A DNA stretch of 46,530 nucleotides from a virus: IMG/VR virus record IMGVR_UViG_3300038701_001117, positions 1-46,530 of that record; one strand, given 5' to 3'. Of the stretch, positions 22,353-39,313 are shown one piece after another (positions within the stretch are counted from its first letter, which is position 1; every line of letters starts with the position of its first letter). The notes beneath the pieces were generated by a model. The model made no database searches, had not been told where the DNA came from, and saw nothing but the letters and a program-made list of their open reading frames with translations. The translations under genes and the position numbers were made by a program.

Positions 22353-23926
22353 TGGCAAAAGCGATAATTAAATTCCATAAAGGGATGACATTCTGGAACG
22401 GTTCAACGTTAGCTGCGGGCTACAAATTTTTCCAGTACCAAGCTGGAACTACAACGAAAGCTAATACGTATACTGACAATACCAAAGGTACTACTAATAG
22501 TAACCCTATGTCTTTAGACTCTGACGGCAGATTACAACAAGATGTATATATTGATCAGTCTATGCGGTTTAAACTAGCTCCTTCTACTGATACGGATCCT
22601 CCCGCCTCTGCTATTTGGGATATTGACAATATAGCGGCCACAGAGTATGCCGTGACCAGCGTCAGCAAGTCTGATGACTACACTATATTGGAAAGTGATA
22701 ATCAAAAATTAATTAAAGTAGACGCCTCAGGTGCAGCTAGGACTATTACTTTATTGGCTGCGGCCACTGCTGGTGATGGGTTTACATTAGAAATTAAGAA
22801 AACAGATAGTTCAGCAAATCTAGTAACTATCGACGGTAACGCATCTGAAACAATTGATGGGGCAACTACAGTTATCCTTGCTGGTCAGAATGGTTCAGTA
22901 AGGCTAATATGTGATGGAAGTAACTGGCATGCTATCGGGAATGGTAGCGGAGTCGACGCACATACGGTGGCTTCTTCAGTTAACAAATTAAAGGTGAGTA
23001 CTGCGGCAACAGGTAATGGTCCAGTAATAGAAGCAGTAGGTAGTGATACAAATATTGATATAGAAGTGCAGCCTAAAGGTACCGGTAATTTAGTAGTTAA
23101 AAGTACTGCAGATGATAGTGCTACTATTCAATTAAATGAAGATACAGATAACGGAACTAACTCTATTTCATTGAAAGCTCCAGCAGCTATTGCGAGTGAT
23201 GTTACTCTCGTTCTCCCTGATGCAGACGGTACAGTTAACCAGGCTATCGTAACTGATGGTTCAGGGGGCTTATCTTTTGCGGACGTGCACGGTTTGAGGT
23301 CTGTTCAAACATTTACTTCTAGTGGCACATGGACACGACCTTCAGGTATTAATTTTGTTAAAATAATAGTTGTAGGGGGCGGAGGCGGCTCAGGTGGTTG
23401 TGCCGCAACCGGAGCCTCGGACAATGCGGAAGCTGGTGGCGGAGGAGCTGGGGGTACTGCTATAAAACTATTAGATGTTTCAAGTATTGCATCTTCAACT
23501 ATAACGGTAGGTGCTGGCGGCACTGCGGGATCAGCAGGTGACAATAATGGTTCCGCTGGAGGAGATTCCTCATGGGCAGATGGGACAAATACTATCACAG
23601 GTTCTGGTGGAGGTTTCGGCGCTGGTTCAGCTGCAGTAAGTGGTTCAGCGGTAAATGATGGAGGATCAGGTGGTTCCTCATCAGGCGGAGATATAAATAC
23701 AACCGGCGGTGATGGCGGTAACGGAAGAATAATAGGAGGCGATCGTGTATTCGCCCACTTCGGGGGAAACTCAATGTACGGCGGGATAACTACAGGTGGT
23801 GATACAGCAAGAGCTGGTCGACAGTATGGAGGAGGAGCCAGTGGTGCCGCGAGTGGTAATAATGAAGCCGCTAAAGCCGGTGCAGCAGGAGATAATGGTA
23901 TTGTTATAGTCTATGAGTATAACTAA
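22352..23926 (+). CDS. Tail fibre with C-terminal glycine-rich domain
   Basis: N-terminus FWNGSTLAAGYKFFQYQAGTTTKANTYTD...LDSDGRL is a common fibre/spike N-terminal pattern; C-terminus FTSSGTWTRPSGINFVKIIVVGGGGGSGG...GIVIVYEY matches the glycine-rich domain family. Confidence 0.65.
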   Translation: MAKAIIKFHKGMTFWNGSTLAAGYKFFQYQAGTTTKANTYTDNTKGTTNSNPMSLDSDGRLQQDVYIDQSMRFKLAPSTDTDPPASAIWDIDNIAATEYAVTSVSKSDDYTILESDNQKLIKVDASGAARTITLLAAATAGDGFTLEIKKTDSSANLVTIDGNASETIDGATTVILAGQNGSVRLICDGSNWHAIGNGSGVDAHTVASSVNKLKVSTAATGNGPVIEAVGSDTNIDIEVQPKGTGNLVVKSTADDSATIQLNEDTDNGTNSISLKAPAAIASDVTLVLPDADGTVNQAIVTDGSGGLSFADVHGLRSVQTFTSSGTWTRPSGINFVKIIVVGGGGGSGGCAATGASDNAEAGGGGAGGTAIKLLDVSSIASSTITVGAGGTAGSAGDNNGSAGGDSSWADGTNTITGSGGGFGAGSAAVSGSAVNDGGSGGSSSGGDINTTGGDGGNGRIIGGDRVFAHFGGNSMYGGITTGGDTARAGRQYGGGASGAASGNNEAAKAGAAGDNGIVIVYEYN

Positions 23927-24345
23927 TCTAGCTCATTCAACCATTCGACTGGTATACGCTTATCAGCATATTTAAAATCATTCTTGGTACACCAATCTGC
24001 ATAAGTGGTCTTTGAGCCTTTGTAAATCTTAGAATTGGAATTATTGAAAACAAAGCGGATGTCTAAATCAGGCATCTGCTTTTTTATTGTCTGATGTTTT
24101 TTACGGTCAGCCATAATAAACCTACCTTTGGTCTCTACGTAGATATCCTTTGTTTTACCTTTTAAACAGAAATCCGGAGTATATGTTCTATTGACCGCCG
24201 GTTGAATATACTTGATCTTCTCTGCTTCATAGTTCGGGTCTATACCATGTTTCCGAATCTGTTCTTCTATATCTTTTTCTAGTCCGGAACGAAAACCATA
24301 TTTAATGGCTACCTGCCTTGGGGTAAACTTATTACTTTTTCCCAT
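23923..24345 (-). CDS. T7 endonuclease I-like Holliday junction resolvase
   Basis: SGLEKDIEEQI...YTPDF...YVETKG...DRKKH...DIRFVF...KIYKGS...IPVEWL is collinear with T7 gp3. Confidence 0.85.
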   Translation of the reverse strand: MGKSNKFTPRQVAIKYGFRSGLEKDIEEQIRKHGIDPNYEAEKIKYIQPAVNRTYTPDFCLKGKTKDIYVETKGRFIMADRKKHQTIKKQMPDLDIRFVFNNSNSKIYKGSKTTYADWCTKNDFKYADKRIPVEWLNELD

Positions 24346-24550
24346 TAAAATAATCCTCTATATTAACCATGTCGTTATCCATATCGTCCATCCAGCCGTA
24401 TTCCTTTCCTTCTAAGAACGCTTCTGCTATATAGTCTTTTAAAATATATAATTGATCTGCTTCTTGTAACTTATCAAAATTCAGAGACTGCATTTCAGTG
24501 TGTAAATCTTTTACTATTTTATCAATAATTTTACCTTTCATTTTAACCAA
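24332..24550 (-). CDS. Hypothetical acidic protein
   Basis: 72-aa ORF overlapping both neighbours within the operon. Confidence 0.5.
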   Translation of the reverse strand: MVKMKGKIIDKIVKDLHTEMQSLNFDKLQEADQLYILKDYIAEAFLEGKEYGWMDDMDNDMVNIEDYFNGKK

Positions 24551-25356
24551 CTCCCGTCAAATATTTTTTCTTTATAGTTACGTTTTATCCAAAGTAATTG
24601 AGCCACTTCTTTTAACCTGGCTTCTGCCGTATTATTAAATACATTCTGATAAATTTTCCAAACCTTCTGAATACCTTGTTTATAGGTTTCAACATCCTGT
24701 AAGGCTCTATAAGTCTTTACCGGACCATAACCGGGTACTCCAGGGATATCATCGGTACTGTCACCTAATAAGAGCTGTGCACAGAACCATAACTGTCCTC
24801 CTCCTATAATCTTCTGTTTCTTTCCTACTAATTTCAATTGAAGAAATCCGGGGTCTGTTATATAGAATATAGCAGAATCTAAGTGAGATTTCAACTCATA
24901 CTTACTTCCATTCTTATAGCTTCTTATCTTTCCTTTCTCAGGGTCGAAATGCCACCCAGGGATCATCCATAAATCTTTATCATTAGTACACAATAATGTT
25001 TTGTCAGTTTGTTCTATACCTAGTACATCATCTACTTCCATCCCAGTAACTAGCTCGGCATCATATTTATCAAACAAATAAGCCCTCATTTCTTTCTCAT
25101 AGAAAGGTCGTCTGTTATCTGTTCTGGATGCTTTATAAGGTTGGGTGACCGCTACTTTATATCTGAAGTTAGATTTCTTATCGTCACCTAAAAAGATACG
25201 GTAGTCTTCTACTTCAGCACTTTTCAATAAACGTTTAATGGTAGTATTTATATTATGGTAAGCATAATGGACGGGGTCCTCGTCAGTGACCATGATGCCA
25301 CTGTTGAATATTAAGTAATCCCCATCGATATGTATTATATTATACTCTGTCGACAT
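24538..25356 (-). CDS. 5'-3' exonuclease / flap endonuclease (T7 gp6 / PolI-N-like)
   Basis: N-terminal IHIDGDYLIF acidic cluster; H3TH-like LLGDSTDDIPGVPGYGPVKT. Confidence 0.8.
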   Translation of the reverse strand: MSTEYNIIHIDGDYLIFNSGIMVTDEDPVHYAYHNINTTIKRLLKSAEVEDYRIFLGDDKKSNFRYKVAVTQPYKASRTDNRRPFYEKEMRAYLFDKYDAELVTGMEVDDVLGIEQTDKTLLCTNDKDLWMIPGWHFDPEKGKIRSYKNGSKYELKSHLDSAIFYITDPGFLQLKLVGKKQKIIGGGQLWFCAQLLLGDSTDDIPGVPGYGPVKTYRALQDVETYKQGIQKVWKIYQNVFNNTAEARLKEVAQLLWIKRNYKEKIFDGSWLK

Positions 25357-26758
25357 CTACAAACTTCACTATATAGCCAGTTAATTCTTCAAAATAGATT
25401 TGAACTAAACGATTGTCTTCTTGGTCAGGGTCAAACTTTCTTTTCATATGAGATTTATATTGTACCCAAACAATTCGTTCTAGTTTATCAAATCGTATGA
25501 TTTCTAATCTGGGGAATAAGTTCTCCATAAGTAACAGGTCTGCATAGAACTTAACTAATTCCTCCTCATCATGGGAAGTACCTAAAATCTCTTGGACATC
25601 ATAGTACATTTCTGATTTAGTAGTATCAAGTTCAAAGGCAAATAAATCAAGATTATCAATTATATCTTTTGTTAAGTACTGTCTTACGAAACTATCGTCC
25701 CGGTAATTAGCAACAACATCTTTAATCTTATCTAAATGATCATCATACCTATTCTGGATATCCTTGAATATCTCATATCCTATCTTATATGGATTAAGTT
25801 GTGTAAATCCCTGTCCGCCATAGTTGTAGTCAGGTTGCATTATCACAGCAGTATGAAGTTCTAATATCTCAAGATAAGCAGAATCGGTTATATATCCTTG
25901 TTCATATAAATCTTTACATATCTCATAACCACACCATGTGGCAAATCCTTCGTTGGCAATCTTGGTTTGAATCTGAGGATAAAAGTATTGTCGAATAGTA
26001 TACACAATTCTGACTATCTCTTTTTCCCATTTCTTCAACACCATACTATTCTTCTCAATGAAGTATAGGAAGTTCTCCTGAGGAAATTGTCCCTCGGTTT
26101 CATACCAATACTTTATTTCATCATAAGTATCTAAGTATTGCCCATACCAATATTGATCTCGGTTGTCATAATAATACTGGATCTTCTCATCTACTTTCTT
26201 CTTAGTGGCAGGAGGTCTTTTATAATGGAATACTCCATAATTCTCCAGAGCATGGCAACTATCTAAAATCCTTTCTACATGTTTCTGACCATGTATGGTA
26301 CTCATTTCACTGATATACTCCTTAGCAAAATTTAGATAAGCTATGATACTACTAGGTCTCGTCCACTGTTTAAATAGGTAATTATTCTTGAAGAAGGCAG
26401 CATGCCCAACAGAGGCATGGGCTAATACCATCGTCTGTGCTGCAGCACTATTATTCTCCATTAGATACGCTATAGGTGGCTCAGTGTTAATGATCATCTC
26501 CAAAGCTAATCCTGACTTTTTATTTTTGTAATCATTAATAAACTGAGTATGATGAGCCCCGAAAGACCAATGAGGGTACATCACAGGTAACCCATTAGTG
26601 GAGTATAAGTATAACATCTGATCATACGTCACTACTTCCATTTGTGAATCAGTATATTCAAATCCATACTTCTCTTCGTTAATAGTTTGAATTCGGTCCC
26701 ATACATTTTTAATTAATGGAACATCCCATTCGTTACCTGTGAATAAATATTTTGACAC
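25340..26758 (-). CDS. spoVR: SpoVR/YcgB family protein
   Basis: 472 aa, matching bacterial SpoVR length; family-like motifs HWSFGAH, LAHASVGHAAFFKNNYLF, ANEGFATW. Confidence 0.75.
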   Translation of the reverse strand: MSKYLFTGNEWDVPLIKNVWDRIQTINEEKYGFEYTDSQMEVVTYDQMLYLYSTNGLPVMYPHWSFGAHHTQFINDYKNKKSGLALEMIINTEPPIAYLMENNSAAAQTMVLAHASVGHAAFFKNNYLFKQWTRPSSIIAYLNFAKEYISEMSTIHGQKHVERILDSCHALENYGVFHYKRPPATKKKVDEKIQYYYDNRDQYWYGQYLDTYDEIKYWYETEGQFPQENFLYFIEKNSMVLKKWEKEIVRIVYTIRQYFYPQIQTKIANEGFATWCGYEICKDLYEQGYITDSAYLEILELHTAVIMQPDYNYGGQGFTQLNPYKIGYEIFKDIQNRYDDHLDKIKDVVANYRDDSFVRQYLTKDIIDNLDLFAFELDTTKSEMYYDVQEILGTSHDEEELVKFYADLLLMENLFPRLEIIRFDKLERIVWVQYKSHMKRKFDPDQEDNRLVQIYFEELTGYIVKFVDVDRV

Positions 26759-26767
26759 ATGTCCTCC

Positions 26768-27271
26768 TTAGAACGGCATCTCATCGTCGTCGTTGTCAAA
26801 GCTATGAACTGCATTAGTTCCTTCTTCATTTAAGGCGTTCATATCTTCATCAGTTACAGTGAACCCATCAGTATCTTCAAATGTACTCACCCCGCCGAAT
26901 TCAACTAGGTCTGTCACTTGTAAGGCTGATAAGCCTAATCCAACTCCTGTCTGGCCGGGTTGTTTTGGGTCGTACTTAAACAAAGTTACAGCAACATTAC
27001 CTTTTGAGCCATTGCCTATAAGTATTGTATCAGGGATAACTTTTCTTTTGGCGTCCACTGTAATAGGTTTAAATTTACTCTTAGCCTGGACAGTAGTGAC
27101 GTTTTTGCCGTCTACGATCTTTTCTTTTATAGGTACACCTTTTTCACTTAGTTTTGTAAGTACTTTCGGGTCTGACGGTATAATGTCAACCGTATAGTTC
27201 CCGTTATCATCCTGCTTGCGAACCTTAGGCCATAACAATGTCCCATTGATTATAAATTGTTTTTTACTCAT
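26768..27271 (-). CDS. ssDNA-binding protein (T7 gp2.5-like)
   Basis: LIGNGSKGNVAVTLFKY...LSALQVTDLVEFGG parallels gp2.5 IIGGGSKLKVKYSLVPY...LESVMLVELATFGG; acidic C-tail ending DNDDDEMPF. Confidence 0.75.
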   Translation of the reverse strand: MSKKQFIINGTLLWPKVRKQDDNGNYTVDIIPSDPKVLTKLSEKGVPIKEKIVDGKNVTTVQAKSKFKPITVDAKRKVIPDTILIGNGSKGNVAVTLFKYDPKQPGQTGVGLGLSALQVTDLVEFGGVSTFEDTDGFTVTDEDMNALNEEGTNAVHSFDNDDDEMPF

Positions 27272-28062
27272 TTCTTTTCACCTCTTTTCTTTGCTAAAAG
27301 TTTATCTGTTGTTGTCTTAAGTCTAGTATCTGTCCATCTGAAACCACATGTACCGCAGTACCATCGTTGTTTAAATCCAACGGATGAAGGGGATAGGCCA
27401 TCTTGTTTTACCTTTTCAGAAGCACAATCCCGACATACTAACCTATCGTCCGTAATTAAAGTCGCTAAGGGTATAGGTAGTTTATCACAATAAGGTACCA
27501 TACTCCAAAATACTTCCTGTAATTCTTCTACATCAATTTTATTATAAGGCCCCATCTTAGTTCTAGGGGATATTTTCTTTTCCTGTATGTCGACCCAGTC
27601 TCTGAATTCTATTCGTAGTTTACCGTCTCCTCCTATGACTTTTGACTTGTAGTCTAACTTATGACTTGTCAACTTAAAGTTTTGTCTTGACATTTTAAGT
27701 GTATCAAGGGTTAAGATATTTGTCAAGGGTGATAATTGCTCTTGCCATAATCTACCTTTAAAAGTCTTTAAATCAAATGCATCACCATTTTGTCCGACAA
27801 GAACAGGATACTTTTGAGCTATCTTAACAAACTTTTCGAGCATAGTTCTATCATCTTGATTTCTATCCCAATATAAAGTCTTGGTTTTCTTCCAGCCTTC
27901 TGCTTTATAGGAAATACAAATAATCTTTTTGTCTTTTTTAATTTGAGTATGATTCACATATTGTTCACCAATACGGTGTGCATACAGTTCAATTAAAGAC
28001 GTTTCGATATCCCAAAATAATAATTTATTCTTAAATTGATCTCGGTTGATTTTATCTCTCAT
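27268..28062 (-). CDS. DEDD/RNase H-fold 3'-5' exonuclease with C-terminal zinc ribbon
   Basis: LFWDIETS (Exo I DxE), VGQNGDAFDL (Exo II); C-terminal CRDC...17 aa...CGTC. Confidence 0.55.
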   Translation of the reverse strand: MRDKINRDQFKNKLLFWDIETSLIELYAHRIGEQYVNHTQIKKDKKIICISYKAEGWKKTKTLYWDRNQDDRTMLEKFVKIAQKYPVLVGQNGDAFDLKTFKGRLWQEQLSPLTNILTLDTLKMSRQNFKLTSHKLDYKSKVIGGDGKLRIEFRDWVDIQEKKISPRTKMGPYNKIDVEELQEVFWSMVPYCDKLPIPLATLITDDRLVCRDCASEKVKQDGLSPSSVGFKQRWYCGTCGFRWTDTRLKTTTDKLLAKKRGEKK

Positions 28063-29324
28063 TACTTTTCCTCGAATAATTCACGGAACCCTTTATATAC
28101 ATCATGTAACCCAGTGGCCACGGAGGTTCCTATTTTGTCGTTATAGATTTCTTTGAGACTCTGCACTTGATGGATAAAGTTGGGACCAAAGCTTACATGT
28201 CCTGTTCCTCTTCCTATATTCAAGTAAGCTAAGAATTGTATTTTCTCCATGAGATTGTTTCTAAGTAGAGAATAAACTCTTGGGTTATCACTGTTCCAAT
28301 TTTCTCCGTCTCCAGTATACGCAATGTATATATTACTACTGTCACTATCGTAGTCTTTTTCTATGATGTCATTAATTAACTGGAACCCTGTGGAGATAAG
28401 TGTTCCTCCGGTATCTCTACCATAGAAGAATGTATGCTCATCTACTTCTTCTGCAGTACTATGGTGACGTATGAATCTAATATCTATATTTTTATATTCT
28501 CGTGATAAGAACAATAAGAAAAGATAAAAGAAATGCTTTGATATAGTTTTTTCTTTTTGACCTAATGACCCACTGACGTCCATTAACAAGAAGACTACAG
28601 CATGTTTAATAGGTTCAGGTTTAGTTACAAATCTACGATAGGATAAATCATGGTCAGTTAAATAGGCAGGTTTCTTTTTCTTAAGTAGTTCTATTTCTTC
28701 TAATAGTATTGCCTTTTTCTTTTTGTCAACTTCTTCTTCGTATGCTTTTTGTAACTCTTCAATGGAGCTCTTAATAGACCCTTTAAAAGGAATAGTTCTC
28801 TTCTTCTTTTCAAAGAAGGTCTTCTTCACATCTAGGTTTACAGGTATACTCTTTCTACAGAAGCCGGCTCGCTTTCTATTCATACGGACAAGCTTCTTAA
28901 TTCCTTTCTTCATAAAGTTAGGTAACCTGATTCGATCAAAATATAGGTCTACAAATTCTTGATGAGATAATATAAATTCAAAGTCATCTTCCCCTTCAGC
29001 AGAATCTCCTGCACCGTTCCCTGAACCTCCTCCGGCAGACCCCTTAGGTACTTTAATCTTATCCCGTTTGGAGAATTTATCATTACCGGACCTAATACCA
29101 CGATACACTCCTTCTCCTGGTTCGTAGTTCCATACAGGTTCTTTAATGGTGTCATGGGGTGCCTTAATGGTTTTTTCTTTACCTTTAACTAGGTCCTTAA
29201 GGTCCCCCTTGGTGATTAAGTCTTCCACCTTATCTTGTAGATAACGTTTCTGTCTCTCGATGAACTTACGTCTAGATAAATTATCTGTGTATTTAGCAGA
29301 CTTTCTTCTATCGATAATACTCAT
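28062..29324 (-). CDS. yeaH: YeaH/YhbH family protein (DUF444, vWA-like)
   Basis: N-terminus MSIIDRRKSAKYTDNLSRRKFIERQKRYL typical of DUF444; MIDAS-like LLMDVSGSLG; 420 aa; start overlaps the prkA stop by 1 nt. Confidence 0.75.
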   Translation of the reverse strand: MSIIDRRKSAKYTDNLSRRKFIERQKRYLQDKVEDLITKGDLKDLVKGKEKTIKAPHDTIKEPVWNYEPGEGVYRGIRSGNDKFSKRDKIKVPKGSAGGGSGNGAGDSAEGEDDFEFILSHQEFVDLYFDRIRLPNFMKKGIKKLVRMNRKRAGFCRKSIPVNLDVKKTFFEKKKRTIPFKGSIKSSIEELQKAYEEEVDKKKKAILLEEIELLKKKKPAYLTDHDLSYRRFVTKPEPIKHAVVFLLMDVSGSLGQKEKTISKHFFYLFLLFLSREYKNIDIRFIRHHSTAEEVDEHTFFYGRDTGGTLISTGFQLINDIIEKDYDSDSSNIYIAYTGDGENWNSDNPRVYSLLRNNLMEKIQFLAYLNIGRGTGHVSFGPNFIHQVQSLKEIYNDKIGTSVATGLHDVYKGFRELFEEK

Positions 29325-31234
29325 TAGCTGTTAACCTTCTTCCGGTTATACCAAGCATATAGGATTTTTGTTTGTCTTGGAGTATATCCTTTCTTCTCCA
29401 TATTCTTGACGAACTTACCCCATTCCTTATTCTTCTCATTTAAGTCCGAAGAGAGTGCTGGGATTAAGCTTTCTGTTTCTTTAAATAACTTCTTCTCTAT
29501 AGCCTCAGCTAACTTCTTATATTCTCTCCAGTTAGGATTCTCTCCTTTATGAGAACTTCTATAGCGTAATACAAAGTTAACAACTTCATGTCTGAAATCC
29601 TTGACGTTAACAATACCTGCTATCTTTTCTATTTCTTCCAGTTCAGCGTTCAACGCTTCTCGGTTATACATTTCCTGAGTATCAGGGTCTCGGTAGTCCT
29701 GCTCTTCAATGAACGCATCAGCATATGTGATGTATTGATTAAATAGTGTTTGTGCATATTCATGATATGAATCCATGAGACATAACCTAATTTGTTTACC
29801 AATCGTTTCAAAGAACTTACTCTCCAGCGCCTCTGCTATAGACTTATATGCTTCAGTGTCCTCTTTAAATACTCCAGTATTAATATACTTATCTATTACT
29901 GCCAACATATGTACAGGGTTAGCAGATACTTCTTCGGAGTCGAAGTTGAATACCTTTGATATAATCTTGAAAGCCTGTCTTGTTGATGTACCTTTAAAGG
30001 CTTCTTTTAAATGTTGTTCTTTATATTCAAAACAAGATTTAATATCTTTGTATTGATCTTTTATGTTATCACCATTATAGATTAACATTTTTCTCCAGAG
30101 CTCGTTTACATCATCATATTCTAAACGTGTAGCCACACAGAACTTAGATAAAATATCTAGTGTAGCAGGTGCACATGGGGCATCTTTTAAATGACTATGA
30201 CCTAAAAGCTTTTTGTATATTTTAATCTCTTCACTATATCGTGTACAATAAGGAACATCGACAATGCAGATTCTATCTAGGAAAGCTTCATTGTCTCTAT
30301 TGTTCTTAAATGTATCCCACTCTGATTCATTCGAGTGAGCTAATATGATACCATCAAAAGGTACTGCTCCAATACCATCTTCTGATGGATTGTAGTTCCC
30401 TTCTTGTGTAGCAGTTAATAGAGGGTGAAGAACTTGTCGTGGTGCTTTAAACATCTCAACAAATTCCATCACACCCCTATTACCTCTACATAGTCCCCCA
30501 CTAAAACTATAAGCATCTGGATCATTTTGACTAAACATTTCTAGTTTTCTTAAATCAATTTTCCCTACGAGAGTAGAAATGTCTTGGTTGTTTTCGTCAC
30601 CTGGCTCTACTTTTTTGATCGCCTGCTGATAGATTTTATTAGGAAACATTTTTACAACTTTGAACTTAGTAATATCTTCATTGAATTCTTTAATTCGCTT
30701 CACTGCCCAGGGGGACAGAAGTCCTGTTAGCTTATGTGCAGGTATATTTAGTTCCTCTGCGTTCTCAGGGAGAAAGAGACCTAAAGGAGATTCAAAAACA
30801 GGGGAAATCTTAAGACCTGTTTCCGTCTCCACGGCTAGAGTATAAAAAGGTTCTTTCTCCATTAGCTCTTTAATTCTTTCTGCGATAGAAGATTTAGCAG
30901 AGCCTACAGGCCCTAGTAAATATAGTACTTGTTTCTTCTCTTCCAAGCCTTGAGCAGCATGTTTAAAATAGGAAACAATATTCTCTATTACTTCTTCCAT
31001 ACCATAAAAATCGTTGAATACAGGATATGTTTTAATAACTCTCTTCTCGAAAATAGTTCCTAGTTTAGAGTCTTTTGCGGTGTCAACCAATACTGGTTCA
31101 CCTATCGCATGTAACAACCTCTCATGAGCTGACCGGTAGCATGCTGGGTCTTTCTTTGCTAAATCTAAGAAATCCTCCAAGGACATTACATCCATTTTTG
31201 TTTTGAATCGCTCATTAAATTTTGTTAACTTCAT
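29324..31234 (-). CDS. prkA: PrkA/YeaG family AAA+ protein (so-called serine protein kinase)
   Basis: 636 aa; P-loop region LYLLGPVGSAKSSIAERIKELME; overall length and N-terminal FLDLAKKDP...SAHERL pattern match the PrkA family. Confidence 0.8.
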   Translation of the reverse strand: MKLTKFNERFKTKMDVMSLEDFLDLAKKDPACYRSAHERLLHAIGEPVLVDTAKDSKLGTIFEKRVIKTYPVFNDFYGMEEVIENIVSYFKHAAQGLEEKKQVLYLLGPVGSAKSSIAERIKELMEKEPFYTLAVETETGLKISPVFESPLGLFLPENAEELNIPAHKLTGLLSPWAVKRIKEFNEDITKFKVVKMFPNKIYQQAIKKVEPGDENNQDISTLVGKIDLRKLEMFSQNDPDAYSFSGGLCRGNRGVMEFVEMFKAPRQVLHPLLTATQEGNYNPSEDGIGAVPFDGIILAHSNESEWDTFKNNRDNEAFLDRICIVDVPYCTRYSEEIKIYKKLLGHSHLKDAPCAPATLDILSKFCVATRLEYDDVNELWRKMLIYNGDNIKDQYKDIKSCFEYKEQHLKEAFKGTSTRQAFKIISKVFNFDSEEVSANPVHMLAVIDKYINTGVFKEDTEAYKSIAEALESKFFETIGKQIRLCLMDSYHEYAQTLFNQYITYADAFIEEQDYRDPDTQEMYNREALNAELEEIEKIAGIVNVKDFRHEVVNFVLRYRSSHKGENPNWREYKKLAEAIEKKLFKETESLIPALSSDLNEKNKEWGKFVKNMEKKGYTPRQTKILYAWYNRKKVNS

Positions 31235-31243
31235 TATTATCTC

Positions 31244-31717
31244 CTAACTTTGTAGTTCTTTAAGGTCGTTATTACCAGTATTATAGACTAATATGTATAT
31301 ATTAGCAAGTATATGAAACTCATGAGATACCTTACTCTCGTCGTCAATTAACTCACCTGATAAATATTTAAATAAATGTCTCCCTATAGCATCCATAATA
31401 TCCGATACCTTTAAAGTATTCTTATATGAAAACAAACCATATTTCGCTGCTCCAAGTTTTGACACTTTAATAATACTTGATAAAATTTCTTCCAATGTAT
31501 ATTTAGTACGTAGATACTCAAATAGATATCTATGAATTTCTTTAATGAATAAATTAATATCTTCGAATTTATCCTGTATAAATAGCTCCAGTAGTCTTTC
31601 GTAATTCAAAGAAAATTCTATTAAAGGTCTATCTGCGTTGACCGCTACAGCAAGCGGACTCATATACATATATCGAGCTGGTGGCTTTTGGGTTCCGTTT
31701 TTTATAGTATTAACCAT
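31244..31717 (-). CDS. DUF5664-like protein (dATP/dGTP pyrophosphohydrolase N-terminal-domain-like)
   Basis: GAAKYG...DAIGRHLFKYLSGELIDDESKVSHEFHILANIYIL matches the GAxKYG...RH...D.ESG..H...N pattern as recalled. Confidence 0.45.
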   Translation of the reverse strand: MVNTIKNGTQKPPARYMYMSPLAVAVNADRPLIEFSLNYERLLELFIQDKFEDINLFIKEIHRYLFEYLRTKYTLEEILSSIIKVSKLGAAKYGLFSYKNTLKVSDIMDAIGRHLFKYLSGELIDDESKVSHEFHILANIYILVYNTGNNDLKELQS

Positions 31718-32091
31718 TAGATAACCTCCTCTAATTCAGGCAATATATCTAAAGGGTCTACATAATCTATAGGCATCCCTGCCGCCGTTGCTATTTTAAT
31801 TTCAGCCTGAACACCTTTTGATTCCTCCCATCCTGGGAGTTTCATTACCATTAACTTGTCACATTTTAATAACATTAATCTATCATGTTCACCCCAATAG
31901 TTCCAACCTGAGTTGTCTATTCCAAAATCAGCGTAGGAAGCAGATTCAGTTATAGGACCAAAAATATGATGACCATCTTGAATTAATTTTGTACCTAAAG
32001 CAGTGACAAGACTCCATCGTAATCTTTCCACCCACTTATCAGGATGGGAATAAGGGGAGGCTAAATATATTAAAGGTTTATCGGTACTCAT
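31717..32091 (-). CDS. DUF1937 / nucleoside 2-deoxyribosyltransferase-like protein
   Basis: LIYLASPYSHPD...FGPITES matches the family N-terminal signature. Confidence 0.5.
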   Translation of the reverse strand: MSTDKPLIYLASPYSHPDKWVERLRWSLVTALGTKLIQDGHHIFGPITESASYADFGIDNSGWNYWGEHDRLMLLKCDKLMVMKLPGWEESKGVQAEIKIATAAGMPIDYVDPLDILPELEEVI

Positions 32092-32098
32092 ATTGATC

Positions 32099-34222
32099 TC
32101 ACTCTTTCAACTCTAACCATGTCTTACCTAAATCATAGTCTACTTTTAGGCCTATGTCAACTTTTTCCCCGAATAATTCCTCATATACTTTATCAGTTGT
32201 CTCGAAGAAATCCCGTATATAATTTATTGCCCATTCAAGATATTCGTCTTTGCAATCAAATTTTATGTCATCATGAGTTTCATTGATAATTAATATTTTA
32301 TCTCTATGATGCTGCAGAGCCCTAAAGAGCCTTCCTACCATCATGTTTACCAGATCAGTAGCGGTACCTTGAATAGGGAAGTTAAGGACACTGGGTTCAT
32401 GGTATCGGCCCCAGACGCCTCTTTTTGTATCCATAAACTTCTTCTCAAAAGTATAACGTTTCCCTGTACAAGTGGTCCACCATCCTGTTGTCTTTTTAAT
32501 ATCTTTAGATTTCCTAATGCTTCTTTTATCTGTCATTAAGATAGGAGCCTCTTCAGGATAAGTTCTCTCATTGTCCTCAATAAAGGACTTACAGATAGCC
32601 AGGTATTGCTGTACTTCAGGGTAACGTTGTTTCTTTTCTTTTAATACTCTCTCCGCTTGCTCATATGTAACCCCACTATTCCTCACTAACGTAGCAGGGT
32701 AGGCCCCATATTGAATGGCAAACGTAATTCCTTTTCCTGGTCTTGTTCGTTTCTGCTTAAATTCATTATGCTTAGGATGTTCAGGATTGATGTACCCTTC
32801 ATAGAATTCTTCATACGGGATACCGAGAGCTAGAGCAGCATGTAGACAATGCTGGTCCAATCCTTTATTTAAGTCCTCTCTAAGCTTCGGACATTTAGTT
32901 ATGAAGGCTTGTATATATACTTCTAATTGAGAGAAGTCAAAACATAGTAAAGTACCTTTATCTTTCCATCGACTATTAAAACACCGACCTAATTCTGCTT
33001 TAGGTATATTCTGAACGTTAGGGTTCTCAGAGGAGAGACGTCCAGTAGGGGGTGATTTTGTATCACTGGAAGAATGGTAACCTACACATACTTTATATTC
33101 ACCATGAATATTCTTGGTATATGGATTCCAACAGTTTTCATATTTATTATAGAATTGTATTTGCTTTTCAAGTTTCCTGTATTTAATAAATAGTTTTCCT
33201 TCTGGGAATGTTTTCAAGGTGTTATCATCCGTACTAAAAATCCCCTGTTTCTTTTTAGGCTCTATATCTGTAGTATCGATTTGATATCCTTTAATATAAA
33301 ATTCTTTCTGCTGGTTCTTATATTTTATCTGTCCAGCTTTCTGTGCTTTTTCCCCATAGCGGATATACTCCCCTTTCTCATTGAGACATGGAACTTTTTC
33401 TACTATTTTAAAAGGGCCACCATACAATAACTTACTAAGATGTTCTGAGCTATTTACATCGAACTCAACTTTATCGGAAGGCCAGTCACTTATGCTTACA
33501 AACTTCTTGATATCCTCGACGACCTGGGCCTTGGTTGCCTCTAGTTTCTTTCTTCGTTGTTTTAATACGTCAATATCTACAGACAATCCATTATACTCCA
33601 TCTCGATAACAGCAAGTAGATGTTCTAAGTATATATCTTGTATCAAAGTTAATTGACCCTGCTTCCTTGCTCTTCTTAATTGTTGTAGATAAACATGTTC
33701 TGTTAAGATAACATCAGTTAAAGCATAGGTTGTATATTCTTTTAATCCTAAACAATCGATAATCTGATTCGTAGTCTTAGGCTCTATTCCTAGCTTCTTG
33801 TCTCCTTTATACATATCTTTCACTGGGTCGTACTTACCTTCACAGCCATAACGCTTACTTACAACATCTAAATTATACTGGAGGAGTTTGTTTTGCCCTT
33901 CTAGGAGGTAGTCAGCTAACATCGTGTCCCATATTTTTCCTCCCCTTTTCAAGAACTCCTGGATATTTTTATTACCCCATAACCACAGTAAATCAAATTT
34001 AATATTATGACCAACAATTATCTGGATATCCTTTAGGTTAATGTCTATATCCCGAGAGATACCTTCAGGGCCATTGTATTTATAGAAGGCGTCTCTTCCT
34101 TGCGTCTTACCTTGCATCATTATAATATCATGAGAAGGCTCAAGAGGATCACAGAATCGATCCCTTACTGTCCTTCCTTCTGTTTCTAAATCAAGTACAA
34201 GATATTTCATAATGTTGTCCAA
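32099..34222 (-). CDS. Family A DNA polymerase with 3'-5' exonuclease domain
   Basis: Exo I VLDLETEG, Exo II HNIKFDLLWL, Exo III YALTDV; SSENPNVQNIP; motif A DFSQLEVYI; motif B RTRPGKGITFAIQYG; motif C ETHDDI. Confidence 0.9.
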   Translation of the reverse strand: MDNIMKYLVLDLETEGRTVRDRFCDPLEPSHDIIMMQGKTQGRDAFYKYNGPEGISRDIDINLKDIQIIVGHNIKFDLLWLWGNKNIQEFLKRGGKIWDTMLADYLLEGQNKLLQYNLDVVSKRYGCEGKYDPVKDMYKGDKKLGIEPKTTNQIIDCLGLKEYTTYALTDVILTEHVYLQQLRRARKQGQLTLIQDIYLEHLLAVIEMEYNGLSVDIDVLKQRRKKLEATKAQVVEDIKKFVSISDWPSDKVEFDVNSSEHLSKLLYGGPFKIVEKVPCLNEKGEYIRYGEKAQKAGQIKYKNQQKEFYIKGYQIDTTDIEPKKKQGIFSTDDNTLKTFPEGKLFIKYRKLEKQIQFYNKYENCWNPYTKNIHGEYKVCVGYHSSSDTKSPPTGRLSSENPNVQNIPKAELGRCFNSRWKDKGTLLCFDFSQLEVYIQAFITKCPKLREDLNKGLDQHCLHAALALGIPYEEFYEGYINPEHPKHNEFKQKRTRPGKGITFAIQYGAYPATLVRNSGVTYEQAERVLKEKKQRYPEVQQYLAICKSFIEDNERTYPEEAPILMTDKRSIRKSKDIKKTTGWWTTCTGKRYTFEKKFMDTKRGVWGRYHEPSVLNFPIQGTATDLVNMMVGRLFRALQHHRDKILIINETHDDIKFDCKDEYLEWAINYIRDFFETTDKVYEELFGEKVDIGLKVDYDLGKTWLELKE

Positions 34223-34527
34223 TACTTATCATGTACTTCTTGTCCTACCAGTTCTTCCCAACTAGCTATATCTTCTAAAAGTTCATCCTCTAGTTGTGGA
34301 TATTCATCTATTGCTTCTTTTACAACTTCATATAACACTTTCCATCCCTCACTTAACGGTGGGTAATGAAACTTAGATTTCCTATCATACATCCCTTCAT
34401 ATCGAATACTTCCATACTTTTCTTTTGAAGATAATGAATAACCTTTTTTATCCATCTCTTTAGAAATATATTCTTCAGCATCTCTAAGATCGTCCCAATG
34501 TTCCCAATCATCACCCCAATAATGCAT
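34207..34527 (-). CDS. Hypothetical Trp/acidic-rich protein
   Basis: 106-aa ORF overlapping the pol start. Confidence 0.5.
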   Translation of the reverse strand: MHYWGDDWEHWDDLRDAEEYISKEMDKKGYSLSSKEKYGSIRYEGMYDRKSKFHYPPLSEGWKVLYEVVKEAIDEYPQLEDELLEDIASWEELVGQEVHDKYWTTL

Positions 34528-34832
34528 TAGTCTTCCTCCTCGTATTCAGATAATTCTATAATATCACCCAGACTAAAGAACAAACGTCTCGTATATTCTA
34601 GTCCTCCGTCAACAGCAATCCCATGGAGTCCTTCATACATCTCTTTAAACTTACTGTCTTTATATATATTTTTTGCATCTAAGTCAGGTCTAGTGTCAAG
34701 ATAGTCATCTATAGCTTTATGAGACTCAGAGTAACACTTACAGACATTGAAGTGGTGTCTATGAGTAGATTCAATAATCTCGTTACAGTTTCTACACTGG
34801 GCTTTATTTGATATCAACTTTTTCGTGGACAT
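34527..34832 (-). CDS. Zinc-ribbon-like hypothetical protein
   Basis: CRNCNEIIESTHRHHFNVCKC ... VDGGLEYTRR. Confidence 0.5.
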   Translation of the reverse strand: MSTKKLISNKAQCRNCNEIIESTHRHHFNVCKCYSESHKAIDDYLDTRPDLDAKNIYKDSKFKEMYEGLHGIAVDGGLEYTRRLFFSLGDIIELSEYEEED

Positions 34833-34980
34833 AATATTTCTTCTCTCTTTTGTCTACTTTTGCTATGGTCCCTATATCAAAATCATGATACAGTATCATA
34901 CCTTCTGTGGCATATATATGAACAGGATTCTCATAAAGCTTTAGAAACTTATCAAATTTCTTTCTACTTATCTCTTTCAT
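34804..34980 (-). CDS. Hypothetical 58-aa protein (below the ORF-track cutoff)
   Basis: Hand-translated MKEISRKKFDKFLKLYENPVHIYATEGMILYHDFDIGTIAKVDKREKKYYVHEKVDIK. Its ATG forms an ATGA overlap with the stop of 34977..35570, and it fills an otherwise empty gap. Confidence 0.4.
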   Translation of the reverse strand: MKEISRKKFDKFLKLYENPVHIYATEGMILYHDFDIGTIAKVDKREKKYYVHEKVDIK

Positions 34981-35570
34981 TTCTTACTCCTCTTAAAATG
35001 TCTACGTATTCTAGTTTTAATATCCTTATCCTCCGCATGTACGTAGATATCTTTATCCTTTATTATTTTCTCGCATTCTTCCTCTGTTAAAAACGGGCAA
35101 TGGTATTCTTTAAAATAACCATGAATCCATTTATTAGTATGTTGAATTAGAGATGTTAGTTCGTTTCCTTTACCGTAGTGGCCTCCTGAATAATTATGAA
35201 ACATTAAAAACGTCCTTTTATTCATACTTAATGAATCACCTGCCAAGGCTAATGTAGCGTGCGCCGAATAACAAGGAGCATCTACAGCCATATGTACTTT
35301 GGCTTTCGATGCATTGATGGCAGATACTATTGATATCAACCCATGACAGTCTCCGCCATACCCAGATAAATAAAACGTAACCACATCAGTTGATGCAGTG
35401 GTTCTAAGTACATGTCGTAAATCTCTATATGTTTCTGCTGTTTCAATATTATTAGAAAGATATATATGTATATAATTTTTACCTGCAACAGGTATTTTCT
35501 TTATAACTACAGGAGCTTCATCGTCACTATCGAAATCTTCTATATTTTCTTTTTCATGAGCATCAGTCAT
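34977..35570 (-). CDS. ClpP/S49-like serine-protease-fold protein, paralog A
   Basis: VTFYLSGYGGDCHGL...CYSAHATLALAGD...LMFHNYSGG parallels ClpP INSPGG...AASMG...MIHQP; clearly paralogous to 39709..40401. Confidence 0.5.
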   Translation of the reverse strand: MTDAHEKENIEDFDSDDEAPVVIKKIPVAGKNYIHIYLSNNIETAETYRDLRHVLRTTASTDVVTFYLSGYGGDCHGLISIVSAINASKAKVHMAVDAPCYSAHATLALAGDSLSMNKRTFLMFHNYSGGHYGKGNELTSLIQHTNKWIHGYFKEYHCPFLTEEECEKIIKDKDIYVHAEDKDIKTRIRRHFKRSKK

Positions 35571-35581
35571 TGCTTTCTCCT

Positions 35582-36844
35582 TTAATCCTCGAATCTACTA
35601 ACATGTGGTTTTAATACACAGGTAAATTTACCTGTTCCACCATTATGTTTGCATCTATCGACTTTAATATTTCTTACATTCTCAATATCATTTGAACACC
35701 CAATACCGATAATAATATCTGTGTTGGCCTGCTTATCTACATTGGACCAGAACGCATCACTTGAACTTATCCATTCTTTGTATTTCTCTGTCTTCTCTAT
35801 TGTATCCCAATACTTACCTCCACCATTAGCCTGGGTCACTCCTATAACAGGAGCATATGTTTGAGCGATTTCTCTTATCTTACCGTAGATATCGTCATAA
35901 GGTCTAGGGCTATTATTCTTCATCTTAGATGGAATAATCTTGTCTACTTGGTCTATTATAATTAAACCAGGGTTGTATTGTTTACATTTCTGTTCTATAA
36001 ACCTAAGAGTCTTCCCTGATGTGTTAATTAGTTCAATATGATTTCCCCTTAATTCCAGATATCTTTCTTGAACCTTCTCTATATTATTACGTAAATATTT
36101 ATTAAAGTTCTCCTCCGGGATTGCTTTTTGATTTATCAATGCAGCTAGCAGTCTCTTTCTAATCTTCTTATTACTTTGTTCATTATTAAAATATAATACT
36201 TTCTTATTAGGCTCCAGTTGTTTTAACATATAGGTAGCCTCACTTACGACGAAGGCTGTCTTCCCGCTGTCATATCCTGCTATCACTAAACAGAAGCTTT
36301 CTTTATCTAATCCTTCTGTGATTCTATTGAGACCATCTAGTCTCCATTGTAGAAAATCTTCTTTATCCTCTTTTATTAAGGTTTTTAAATCATGGGTATA
36401 TAAGTCCTCGTCTTTGTTAGTCTCCTCTGCTAATCGTTGTTCATTGAATTTTAATAAGAGGTCTTCCATCTTAAATGTGTCAAACCCATCCTTCTTTATT
36501 GCAGATAATGTGTCCCACAATACCTTCTTCTGCAATTCTTTTATTGTTTCCTCAGTGTCAACTACAGGAGTCTCGTGGACTCTACTAAATAAACTTTTAT
36601 AGTATGCAGTATCGTTATCATCCATATTAGAATGTAACGACGAAAAGAAAAAAGGTACGAAGGTTTTAAGTTGTATATTCTTATTCTTCTTCTGATTATA
36701 CCACTCTTCGTACCCTTCTAAAATAACCTTAGCTTCATCGGAGATAGATTGTGTATTTACAATCGAGAGGTACTTATAGTAATTATCCCTCTCTGTAAAT
36801 ATTTTCAATAAAGCTAGGTCTAACTCTGGGTTAATTGTTCTCAT
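35582..36844 (-). CDS. Replicative DNA helicase (T7 gp4C/DnaB-like)
   Basis: Walker A IAGYDSGKTAF, Walker B LIIIDQVDKI, followed by GVTQANGGG. Confidence 0.8.
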   Translation of the reverse strand: MRTINPELDLALLKIFTERDNYYKYLSIVNTQSISDEAKVILEGYEEWYNQKKNKNIQLKTFVPFFFSSLHSNMDDNDTAYYKSLFSRVHETPVVDTEETIKELQKKVLWDTLSAIKKDGFDTFKMEDLLLKFNEQRLAEETNKDEDLYTHDLKTLIKEDKEDFLQWRLDGLNRITEGLDKESFCLVIAGYDSGKTAFVVSEATYMLKQLEPNKKVLYFNNEQSNKKIRKRLLAALINQKAIPEENFNKYLRNNIEKVQERYLELRGNHIELINTSGKTLRFIEQKCKQYNPGLIIIDQVDKIIPSKMKNNSPRPYDDIYGKIREIAQTYAPVIGVTQANGGGKYWDTIEKTEKYKEWISSSDAFWSNVDKQANTDIIIGIGCSNDIENVRNIKVDRCKHNGGTGKFTCVLKPHVSRFED

Positions 36845-37547
36845 TTAAACTCTCGTTAATTAATTCTTTTATTCTATCATTTGAATAGAACTTCGGATCA
36901 TGTTCTGTTTCAATATGTTTAACGTCACATGATAATCTTAGACTATTTTGTATCTTTTGTCTACCTTTTTGCCCTGCTTCGTCTCCATCCATCCATATAA
37001 TAAATTTGTGACCTCGTTTAAACAAGAAGGTTCGTAAGTCATCATTAATGGAACATCCTAGTAATGCTATGGCGCTATTGTTCTGCCCTACTTTAATGGC
37101 GCTGATTATGTCCTCTACTAGCACAATGTATTCAGATGAGGGGCGATTCACTACATAAGGATATTTCTTACCCCAAGGGAATTTTTTACATTTGGTAATC
37201 CATTTAGGTTGTGATAAACCTATGAACCTGGCTTGATATCCTACTAGCTCCCCGTCTGGTTTCCTAATAGGGAATATAAGCCTCTTCATCTTAGGGGAGA
37301 AATATATATTATTCCAATCTTTTAAAGAATACTTCACTAAGAAATCTTGATATAACTTAGGAATATCGGGAGTTATATCTGATGGTAGTTTCCCGTCCCA
37401 TTCGTCTTCTATCTTATCTGTGAAGGTAAATGTCACGCGACGTGGCTTATAGTACCCGCAGGCGAAACATTTTGAACCTTTGTCTCCAATAGAGAACCCG
37501 TCACTAGAAGGGCATACGGGACAGGGAATATGAGTTTTATACCACAC
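36831..37547 (-). CDS. DNA primase (zinc finger + TOPRIM)
   Basis: CPVCPSSDG...CFACGY zinc motif; TOPRIM IVLVEDIISA and IIWMDGDEAGQKG; GTG start. Confidence 0.8.
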   Translation of the reverse strand: MWYKTHIPCPVCPSSDGFSIGDKGSKCFACGYYKPRRVTFTFTDKIEDEWDGKLPSDITPDIPKLYQDFLVKYSLKDWNNIYFSPKMKRLIFPIRKPDGELVGYQARFIGLSQPKWITKCKKFPWGKKYPYVVNRPSSEYIVLVEDIISAIKVGQNNSAIALLGCSINDDLRTFLFKRGHKFIIWMDGDEAGQKGRQKIQNSLRLSCDVKHIETEHDPKFYSNDRIKELINESLNENN

Positions 37548-38197: not shown

Positions 38198-38208
38198 CTT
38201 TATTTCTC

Positions 38209-38310: not shown

Positions 38311-38321
38311 AACTCTATCTC

Positions 38322-38555: not shown

Positions 38556-38591
38556 GGTTCTATCTCCCACTTAAATTTCTTCTCTAATATA

Positions 38592-38619: not shown

Positions 38620-38624
38620 AGGGG

Positions 38625-39310: not shown

Positions 39311-39313
39311 TAG

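Follow-up and report, generated by a model that had tools for sequence, protein, structure and literature searches.

A complete prkA-yeaH-spoVR trio in the replication operon of an uncultured podophage family

The bacterial module and related systems

Few bacterial gene sets of unsettled function are as widely conserved as the one that encodes the YeaG/YeaH/YcgB proteins (also called PrkA/YhbH/SpoVR). Here, we describe a viral version of this set, which is found in the IMG/VR record IMGVR_UViG_3300038701_001117 (positions 1 to 46,530; this whole stretch of 46,530 nucleotides is called the window in the following). The three genes span 5.9 kb of the minus strand, in the order prkA (29324..31234), yeaH (28062..29324) and spoVR (25340..26758). 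The first two are contiguous, and the third lies 1.3 kb further downstream. We lean, without great confidence, towards the view that the trio is a phage-adapted form of the bacterial module, which would have been captured once and inherited since, and which would act as an AAA+/von Willebrand factor A (VWA) machine that alters the growth-arrest programme of the host.

In bacteria, mutations in yeaG and ycgB were interchangeable in an evolution experiment, and the Escherichia coli YeaG protein has been called a kinase. In six species, cofitness of the three bacterial genes is high (r>0.7), and their phenotypes centre on the use of nitrogen and amino acids (10.1101/072470). The bacterial operon is induced by growth arrest and is controlled by ppGpp and RpoN (sigma-54) (PMC3188799).

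The phage trio resembles the yeaG-yeaH-ycgB or prkA-yhbH-spoVR sets of E. coli, Shewanella, Pseudomonas, Rhizobium etli and Bacillus in that all three Pfam families are represented at full length, and in that the prkA-yeaH junction is coupled. The Walker A lysine of PrkA, the metal ion-dependent adhesion site (MIDAS) of YeaH and the His/Glu set of SpoVR are also shared. In contrast to the bacterial genes, which have ppGpp, RpoS, sigma-54 or sigma-E dependent promoters, the phage genes belong to a replication operon. The phage P-loop reads GSAKSS instead of the bacterial GGGKSS, and SpoVR is without one conserved loop, one conserved His residue and any recognisable SpoVR_C domain. Each of the three phage genes falls into a phage-only group. 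Finally, spoVR is split from yeaH in the window by genes for an exonuclease and a single-stranded DNA-binding protein (SSB); E. coli also has ycgB apart from yeaGH (10.1101/072470).

The succession of an AAA+ gene and a gene for a MIDAS-bearing VWA protein is also seen in the MoxR-type pairs (RavA-ViaA, CbbQ-CbbO, NorQ-NorD and BchI-BchD-BchH) and in Rea1/MDN1. An AAA+ motor, a VWA/MIDAS adaptor and a third protein make up the layout of the MoxR-VWA remodelling systems and of magnesium chelatase, and P-loops of the RavA type have an alanine before the Walker A lysine. The likeness extends to the phage proteins themselves: in structure, YeaH comes closest to the Rea1 MIDAS domain, and the PrkA profile matches the Walker B/sensor 1 region of the MoxR ATPase RavA (4e-5). 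However, PrkA is not a MoxR protein (AAA_3/AAA_5 type, about 300-500 amino acids). It has Pfam families of its own and a large C-terminal kinase-like domain, it is closer to Lon around Walker A, and its AAA_5 P-loop match scores 19.7 bits, with the cut-off at 22. We therefore regard the MoxR-VWA systems as a 'works like' analogy, and not as relatives in the sense of family membership.

Among phage genes, a comparison can be made with starvation-response genes such as cyanophage MazG and phage peptide deformylase, which are likewise host-derived and kept by lytic phages of nutrient-poor habitats. Both kinds of gene are found next to the trio: a MazG-like gene lies directly upstream of prkA in the window, and marine IMG/VR contigs have a peptide deformylase gene beside the trio. 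The difference is that these are single enzymes of defined chemistry, whereas the trio would be a three-gene regulatory or remodelling module.

Sequence and structure of the three phage proteins

The initial annotation, which was made from the DNA letters without database searches, had assigned the three genes by their hallmark motifs, and profile searches agree with it in all three cases. The PrkA/YeaG homologue has 636 amino acids and matches PF08298 (1.6e-155) and PF06798 (5.9e-44), with scores of 518 and 151 bits (cut-off 25) over profile positions 1-353 of 358 and 2-251 of 255. It consists of an N-terminal domain of the AAA+ ATPase type, in which the expected LLGPVGSAKSS stretch contains the Walker A motif GPVGSAKSS (K114), and of the PrkA C-terminal domain. 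The protein matches PHROG 22605 at 2.9e-178, and the sole solved relative (PDB 9xip/9xiq/9xir, 'Serine protein kinase', 692 amino acids) at 1.6e-46; the next matches of the profile after 9xip are Lon proteases, around Walker A (2e-8). In PrkA, 87 of the 90 columns that are at least 95% conserved in 112 homologues outside the phage family are kept, and G108, K114, N302, R321, R419, E536 and R548, which are invariant in 65 diverse members, are all present. As read from its sequence, PrkA is an AAA+ ATPase.

The alanine that precedes the Walker A lysine had been pointed out before as a departure from the usual glycine. It is indeed unusual, since 116 of the 120 best PrkA homologues, including all those named by organism, have GPVGGGKSS, but it does not appear to be a defect. 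The four exceptions (the window, P0003, P0006 and P0008) all belong to one phage family, in which 15 of 18 members have GPVGSAKSS. The same motif is found in Ralstonia jumbo phage RsoM2USA and in some jumbo-like IMG/VR loci, and related variants occur in phage phiYS40 (GTAKST) and in 9xip (GSAKST). Among 79 representatives of the PrkA family, 12 have Ala or Ser before the lysine, so that this is a minority state. From the distribution of the motif, GSAKS is a lineage hallmark and not a lesion.

The YeaH/YhbH homologue (420 amino acids) matches the DUF444 family (PF04285, 5.9e-104) with 348.9 bits, over profile positions 2-417 of 418. The N-terminal region carries the family signature IIDRR…R..F, here as MSIIDRR...NLSRRKF, with the nearly invariant residues D5, R6, R7, R18 and F21. 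A linker rich in Gly and acidic residues connects it to a C-terminal VWA domain with the DVSGS motif (D249/S251/S253). The MIDAS residues D249, S251, S253, T308 and D339 are complete and invariant in 119 sequences, and they are included in the 51 of 64 highly conserved columns that YeaH keeps. The AlphaFold2 model, built from 119 sequences, has a mean predicted local distance difference test (pLDDT) score of 84.5 and a Rossmann-like C-terminal domain. In a Foldseek search, the model matched 106 solved VWA/MIDAS domains with E-values of 1e-3 or below, among which that of the AAA+ protein Rea1 (6qtb, 9e-7) ranks first. A search of PDB sequences with the YeaH profile gave nothing significant, and the VWA domain is visible by fold comparison only. 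Judging from the model, YeaH has a VWA domain as its C-terminal half, and the MIDAS site is intact. In R. etli, the product of the second operon gene has previously been noted to contain a VWA domain (PMC3188799).

The SpoVR/YcgB homologue (472 amino acids, mostly helical) is a divergent copy. The Pfam core (PF04293, 1.3e-101) is clearly recognised, with 340.7 bits (cut-off 27) over profile positions 1-384 of 407, and the motif HASVGHAAFFKNN (H114/H119) is present. SpoVR keeps 81 of 106 highly conserved columns, among them nine invariant His and Glu residues (H63, E87, H114, H119, H169, E235, E270, E297 and H302), which suggest a metal site. Nevertheless, it diverges more than any other of the over 60 SpoVR proteins aligned. 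It is the only one among them that lacks the conserved loop of about 20 residues, 'C.NPxEEDxxWFPD.AG', after residue 339 or so, and the only one that has a glycine (G277) in place of the near-universal His of the motif NEG[FW]A[TS]F.H. The SpoVR_C domain (PF24755), which is present in 115 of 119 other listed SpoVR homologues and in the relatives L084 and L091, has no Pfam match in the window SpoVR. As the AlphaFold2 model (pLDDT 84.3, predicted template modelling score 0.84) contains a folded beta/alpha domain at residues 398-468, the C-terminal domain is probably present but divergent. The earlier description of the trio as complete and full-length is therefore correct in that all three ORFs (open reading frames) are intact, but has to be qualified for SpoVR, which is the least preserved of the three. 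From its sequence, the window SpoVR may be a natural minimal variant, or one with altered function.

For the fold of SpoVR, the PDB offers no significant neighbour (best E 0.4) and BFVD a single match, the viral protein A0A3Q8HYQ4 of 617 amino acids, so that no SpoVR activity can be inferred from structure. In phage phiYS40 (L002), a protein of 616 amino acids without a Pfam match is encoded at 6112-7962, between SpoVR and PrkA. In view of its similar length to the BFVD match, Thermus phages may carry a second, very divergent SpoVR-like gene.

The family names, and the sporulation defects of prkA and spoVR mutants of Bacillus subtilis and Bacillus anthracis, raise the question whether the phage manipulates endospore formation in a spore-forming host. 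A study of viromes from oxygen minimum zones (OMZ) points the same way, as it lists spoVR as the most abundant 'sporulation' auxiliary metabolic gene (AMG) (PMC8940887). Such a role is hardly credible for the window, because, for each of the three proteins, the closest homologues with an organism name are from non-sporulating Proteobacteria (Oceanospirillales, Vibrio, Pseudomonas, Mesorhizobium and Hoeflea). The proteobacterial trio is a growth-arrest/nitrogen module, and no other sporulation gene was found among the 61 non-overlapping ORFs of at least 50 amino acids in the window, all of which were compared with Pfam and/or PHROGs.

The trio in a podophage family and in other phages

The ORF map and the family matches agree with the initial annotation in placing the trio on one strand of a phage replication operon, between the DNA polymerase and a 5'-3' exonuclease, with spoVR two genes downstream of yeaH and separated from it by the SSB and exonuclease genes. 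The prkA stop and yeaH start codons have one base in common (AGCTAATGAGT), as had been noted, and their adjacency is like that in bacteria.

This arrangement is not peculiar to the window. At least 20 uncultured podophage-like contigs of about 35-48 kb carry the trio where the window has it, downstream of PolA. L083, L084, L085, L091, L093 and about 15 IMG/VR contigs share this position, downstream of PolA and the MazG-like gene, with PrkA identities to the window of 48-72%. The family includes L084, L085, L091 and L093, and, from IMG/VR, L098 (45.9 kb), L099 (44.2 kb), L102 (47.8 kb), L106 (47.2 kb), L122, L128, L129 and L132. Genes that family members have in common with the window (25-64% identity) encode the primase, the helicase, the ClpP-like protein, PolA, the DUF1937 protein, the MazG-like protein, the 5'-3' exonuclease, the endonuclease and the tail fibre. 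The genes that intervene within the trio differ between members: L084 has none, L085, L091 and L093 have HNH, YopX or metallophosphatase genes, and the window has the exonuclease and SSB genes. The only PrkA that is more than 58% identical to that of the window is P0003 (72%), which is encoded on a contig of 3.6 kb with the gene order MazG-like, PrkA, YeaH, exonuclease. The best 120 SpoVR homologues in a collection of 5.8 billion proteins are all metagenomic, and their longest contigs do not exceed 50.6 kb, with many in the range of 38-50 kb. Single-protein patterns for PolA identified no close relatives in IMG/VR and GTDB genomes; the relatives came from the lists of PrkA and SpoVR homologues.

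In neighbour-joining trees of the family together with 20 named bacterial loci, jumbo and huge phages and other IMG/VR groups, the phage family is monophyletic for each of the three genes. The split between the family and the rest has bootstrap values of 85 (PrkA), 97 (YeaH) and 96 (SpoVR), and the inner groupings are largely congruent. One further candidate, L148, was rejected as a family member on inspection of the trees, since the split that includes it was found in 0 of 100 replicates, and the values above are for the split without it.

A scan of IMG/VR with a PolA profile served as negative control, and the matches listed are mostly distant PolA phages. Among these matches, 38 PolA loci are at least 15 kb long, and 37 of them, with PolA at most 31% identical to that of the window, have the same generic primase-helicase-PolA-exonuclease module, but no trio. 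The only trio carrier, L254, is a family member (PolA 36%). The common position of the trio and the family split found gene by gene suggest that the trio entered a T7-like replication module once, long ago, and has been passed on vertically in the phage family since.

The window itself is a complete phage genome. Positions 1-127 and 46404-46530 are identical over 127 bp, which indicates a circularly closed, complete assembly with a unique length of 46,403 bp. The plus strand encodes TerS, TerL, a portal protein, a P22 gp10-like protein (Hc3/gp10-like, 'head closure/stabilisation'), a tail fibre and GH19 lysins/endolysin, according to Pfam and PHROGs. With terminase, portal, tail and lysis genes and complete ends, the genome belongs to the Caudoviricetes. 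The nearest cultured phages are distant, at about 35% identity for TerL (EBPR podovirus 1 and a Chlorobiaceae phage), about 30% for PolA (Vibrio phage ICP2) and about 30% for the gp10-like protein (aquatic podoviruses). The label 'lytic', which had been attached to the phage, is backed solely by the absence of detectable integrase, excisionase and repressor families from the 61 scanned ORFs. No tRNA genes were found in the window.

These data bear on the possibility that the trio is passenger DNA without a role for the phage, i.e. a recently captured host operon or an artefact of assembly or of a prophage boundary. A precedent of a kind exists in Enterobacter phage LAU1 (MN688132.1, 30.8 kb), where a yeaG gene at 19-1932, with 55% identity to the window PrkA, is probably the host flank of a prophage-derived record and not a phage gene. 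Moreover, the nearest relatives of the window PrkA by identity are bacterial: it is 53-58% identical to proteobacterial orthologues, with Oceanospirillales and named marine Gammaproteobacteria at 55-58%. However, no bacterial homologue exceeds 58%, and the family clade is backed by all three genes. The contig is circular and complete, and Pfam and PHROGs scans found no bacterial genes in it. The trio has the same GC content (0.35-0.36) and GC content at third codon positions (0.31-0.33) as the remaining genes, and its codon-usage correlation of 0.76-0.86 compares with 0.69-0.92 in other genes. Matching composition and the end overlap thus give no indication of a chimera or a recent insertion. 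The position of the trio is kept in about 20 diverged relatives, with the Walker A lysine and the MIDAS residues conserved. Together, composition, circularity and synteny led us to reject a chimera or a recent capture, and we consider passenger DNA very improbable.

Several other features of the genome deserve mention. A GroES/Cpn10-like co-chaperonin is encoded just past the portal gene (4867-5277, plus strand; Pfam 2e-6, above the cut-off), and the relative L084 has a Cpn60/GroEL gene. A protein with an Asp/Arg beta-hydroxylase-like (cupin) domain is encoded at 9267-9707 (plus strand), directly 3' of the putative major capsid gene. GH19 (chitinase-like lysozyme) domains occur in two adjoining plus-strand genes, one for a protein of 333 amino acids with the GH19 domain at its C-terminus (18920-19921), possibly a virion-associated lysin, and one for a 175-residue endolysin (19927-20454). 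An ORF-poor switch region (37600-39650), which separates the replication operon of the minus strand from the early genes of the plus strand, contains strong sigma-70-like sites on the plus strand (38625-38653 and 39413-39441, 11 of 12 matches each) and a further site on the minus strand (38619-38592, 10 of 12 matches). As the minimum of the cumulative GC skew also lies inside it, this is likely an early promoter or origin region.

Beyond the podophage family, the suspicion that the trio might be an oddity of one phage is not borne out, as it is found in published phages, in PHROGs and in more than 190 IMG/VR contigs. A tblastn search with PrkA matched 17 of 50,697 phage records. Positive records include the Thermus phages phiYS40, TMA, phiLo, MN1 and Lalka, RsoM2USA, four 'huge phage' assemblies and the record of Enterobacter phage LAU1. 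In RsoM2USA, ORF30, ORF29 and ORF28 form a contiguous PrkA-DUF444-SpoVR set, in phiYS40 the genes 056, 057 and 059 encode DUF444, SpoVR and PrkA, and the huge phages LR756502, LR745206 and LR756504 have the trio as well. Like the window, these virulent genomes contain complete PrkA, DUF444 and SpoVR genes, and RsoM2USA has the same GSAKSS motif. Unlike the podophage of about 46 kb, they are myoviruses or huge phages of 70-640 kb, with no other common genes and with PrkA identities to the window from 27% (phiYS40) to 51% (huge phages). In the trees, their trios group with bacteria or alone, which suggests separate captures.

A survey of viral databases, as proposed in the initial annotation, brought up 126 PrkA and 191 SpoVR relatives in IMG/VR. 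All three genes are present in 150 of the 173 loci that were fetched, and most of the others are cut by contig ends. The first 80 PrkA loci have no other gene in common with the window, and are therefore from different phages. In a marine group (examples L010, L018 and L022), the neighbours of the trio are genes for peptide deformylase, ClpX, zeta-toxin/AAA_33, phage lysozyme and PAAR proteins, and in another group they are genes for homing endonucleases, phosphoribosyl pyrophosphate (PRPP) synthetase and glycosyltransferases. From their gene content, both neighbourhoods have a viral and not a bacterial look. Separate captures would account for the Thermus-phage, jumbo/huge-phage and marine groups. 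The zeta-toxin genes near the trio may explain why the AMG depth profiles of spoVR and zeta-toxin in OMZ viromes are similar (PMC8940887). In other phages, including the relatives L091/L092, L098, L100 and L104, the trio repeatedly has proteostasis and phosphatase genes beside it (Peptidase_M17, Peptidase_M48, Metallophos, YkuD_2, ClpX and peptide deformylase).

The phage-borne trio is already present in public genomes, and is thus known in kind, though not studied. Genome papers on isolated phages list its genes singly and not as a trio; the RsoM2USA paper has PrkA and SpoVR in a table, under separate functional headings (PMC8504454). PHROGs families exist for all three proteins, all of 'unknown function'. 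The impression that phage-encoded trios have not been the subject of any functional study agrees with full-text literature searches, which returned only the RsoM2USA gene table and the virome listing of spoVR as an AMG, and no paper that mentions PrkA together with 'auxiliary metabolic'.

Operon context, proposed function and significance

The replication operon that contains the trio extends over 23923..37547 (minus strand), with overlaps or gaps of mostly at most 30 nt. By Pfam and PHROGs assignments, it encodes a primase, a DnaB helicase, a ClpP-like protein, two small ORFs, PolA, a DUF1937 protein and a MazG-like protein, then PrkA, YeaH, an exonuclease, the SSB, SpoVR, a 5'-3' exonuclease, a small ORF and an endonuclease. 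The prkA ATG is preceded by an AGGAG ribosome-binding site. The yeaH and exonuclease genes have one base in common, at a junction that is the same in the relative L083, the exonuclease and SSB genes overlap by 4 nt, and spoVR starts with GTG, 4 nt past a GGAGG and 9 nt past the SSB stop codon. Promoter- or terminator-like sites within the operon are not more frequent than in shuffled sequence.

The exonuclease between yeaH and spoVR (27268..28062, minus strand) is of the 3'-5' DnaQ/PolB-exo-like type, with matches to PHROG 403 ('DNA polymerase exonuclease subunit', 1.2e-43) and to the Pfam families DNA_pol_B_exo1 and RNase_H_2. The SSB (26768..27271, minus strand) is gp2.5-like (PHROG 112, 4.5e-18; Pfam Enc34_ssDNA-bd 2.4e-5, below the cut-off). 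On the other side of the trio, directly upstream of prkA, lies the gene for the MazG-like protein, which has a dATP/dGTP diphosphohydrolase-N (dGTP_diPhyd_N) domain (31244..31717, minus strand; PF18909, 2.2e-13) and which is found at the same place in L083, L084, L085, L091 and six of seven further family loci. It adjoins the gene for the DUF1937 (nucleoside deoxyribosyltransferase-like) protein (31717-32091, minus strand; Pfam). A PurZ-like gene was not seen in the window, so that a Z-genome pathway is not implied. PADLOC, a search for defence systems, gave no match for the trio, the ClpP-like, the MazG-like or the DUF1937 protein.

In view of this context, the module might serve the DNA metabolism of the phage, by assembling, activating or metal-loading a component of replication or nucleotide metabolism. 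Its position between PolA/MazG-like and the exonucleases is fixed in every family member, the SSB and exonuclease genes are interleaved with it in the window, and in phiYS40 it abuts a deoxynucleoside monophosphate kinase gene. In many cases, MoxR-VWA systems act as maturases for particular enzymes. Nevertheless, we consider this explanation unlikely. Other phage groups have the trio among host-takeover or AMG-type genes and not in the replisome, and the bacterial module has its links with growth arrest and nitrogen metabolism, and none with replication. Co-location in a phage operon mostly reflects the timing of expression.

The ClpP-like (S14) peptidase gene between helicase and PolA (34977..35570, minus strand; PHROG 1827, 6.2e-42; Pfam CLP_protease 6.7e-5) is a possible functional partner of the trio, judging from its distribution: 16 loci have homologues no more than 10 kb away from the trio, and CLP_protease is found in all seven family loci sampled. 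Across the phage family, this ClpP-like protein is as conserved as PolA beside the trio. A second ClpP-like (S14) paralogue heads the plus-strand early block (39646-40401), and the structural module has no recognisable prohead protease. M17 aminopeptidase genes are present in three of the seven sampled loci and in L091/L092, and M48 peptidase and GroEL/GroES-like genes also occur. The recurrence of such proteostasis genes provides circumstantial evidence for protein turnover or amino-acid supply as the output of the module.

These genes could also be read in a more direct way. PrkA might be a Lon-like unfoldase or protease, possibly feeding the ClpP-like peptidases, and would turn host proteins into amino acids or nitrogen for virions. 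The two ClpP-like genes of the window, the M17 and M48 peptidases of the family and the ClpX and peptide deformylase genes beside the marine trios would fit, as would the similarity of the PrkA profile to Lon around Walker A. B. subtilis PrkA has been described as an ATP-dependent Lon-like protease that hydrolyses casein, provided that the Walker A lysine is present, and that has no kinase activity (PMC9512850). In contrast, highly purified B. anthracis PrkA oligomerizes with ATP but is neither a kinase nor a protease, and the earlier activity was possibly due to a contaminant (PMC13001217). Pfam finds no recognisable protease domain in PrkA, and the co-occurrence with peptidases in the family may reflect shared ancestry. 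Phage ClpP-like proteins are often prohead proteases. All in all, we see a small chance that proteolysis and amino-acid salvage are the purpose of the trio.

The view that we favour is that the trio is a captured and phage-adapted bacterial module. An ancestor of the large uncultured family of PolA-type podophages (about 35-48 kb) would have acquired it once, and it would since have become fixed in the replication (middle-gene) operon. PrkA would be an ATP-driven motor, YeaH would serve as its adaptor through the VWA/MIDAS domain, and the helical, His/Glu-rich SpoVR would be a third subunit or a client. The layout resembles that of the MoxR-VWA pairs and of the BchI-BchD-BchH magnesium chelatase, and is suggestive of an ATP-driven machine for remodelling or activation. 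Co-expressed with the replisome and free of host control by ppGpp, RpoS and sigma-54, the machine would impose or override host growth arrest in every infection. Its targets would be nitrogen and amino-acid metabolism and protein turnover, so that a nutrient-limited cell would be kept supplying phage replication. The suggestion of the initial annotation that the phage may reprogram or bypass a dormancy or starvation checkpoint of its host is a reasonable conjecture. We infer that the three proteins form one complex, that this complex acts on host proteins, and that the benefit to the phage is replication in starved hosts. A more far-reaching version of this proposal is possible, but doubtful. 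It holds that a large, so far undescribed podophage family has the trio as one of its core components, passed on vertically, with at least three independent captures elsewhere. The phage versions, with the GSAKS Walker A motif and a minimal SpoVR, would be a streamlined AAA+/VWA/metalloprotein machine which, during infection and together with ClpP-like proteins and aminopeptidases, switches host growth arrest and protein turnover.

Several observations weigh against the proposal of a phage-adapted growth-arrest module. The biochemistry of bacterial PrkA is disputed, as kinase activity, Lon-like protease activity and neither of them have been claimed. The R. etli prkA mutant has no stress phenotype (PMC3188799), so that the effect of the module may be subtle. 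In the window, two replication genes interrupt the trio, whose most eroded member is spoVR; with the loss of the loop and the His residue, it may work differently or less well. The trees are neighbour-joining trees only, unrooted and with long branches, and long-branch effects could inflate the separation of the family. Full-text searches of the literature returned no experimental work on any phage copy, and the 'starved host' part of the proposal is conjecture.

At the level of sequence databases, the trio is not surprising, but it offers a promising and neglected route to a long-standing question. The present analysis adds that the trio is a hallmark of a sizeable family of uncultured podophages, that it recurs independently elsewhere and that GSAKS marks a lineage. 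It further adds that YeaH, as far as the model can tell, is a bona fide MIDAS protein, that the SpoVR fold has no solved neighbour and that the window SpoVR is partly eroded. The data also suggest a different understanding of the 'spoVR' matches in marine viromes, which are currently read as sporulation genes, but which may belong to a proteobacterial-type starvation module in phages of non-sporulating hosts. As trios are under purifying selection in unrelated phage lineages, and apparently long inherited in one of them, their effect on cell physiology would be strong and portable. The phage copies are compact, constitutively expressed and naturally 'mutated' versions of the module, with a Walker A variant and a SpoVR minus loop and His. 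If the more far-reaching version of the proposal is true, phages would provide the first tractable system for a bacterial module that has been 'conserved but obscure' for 25 years.

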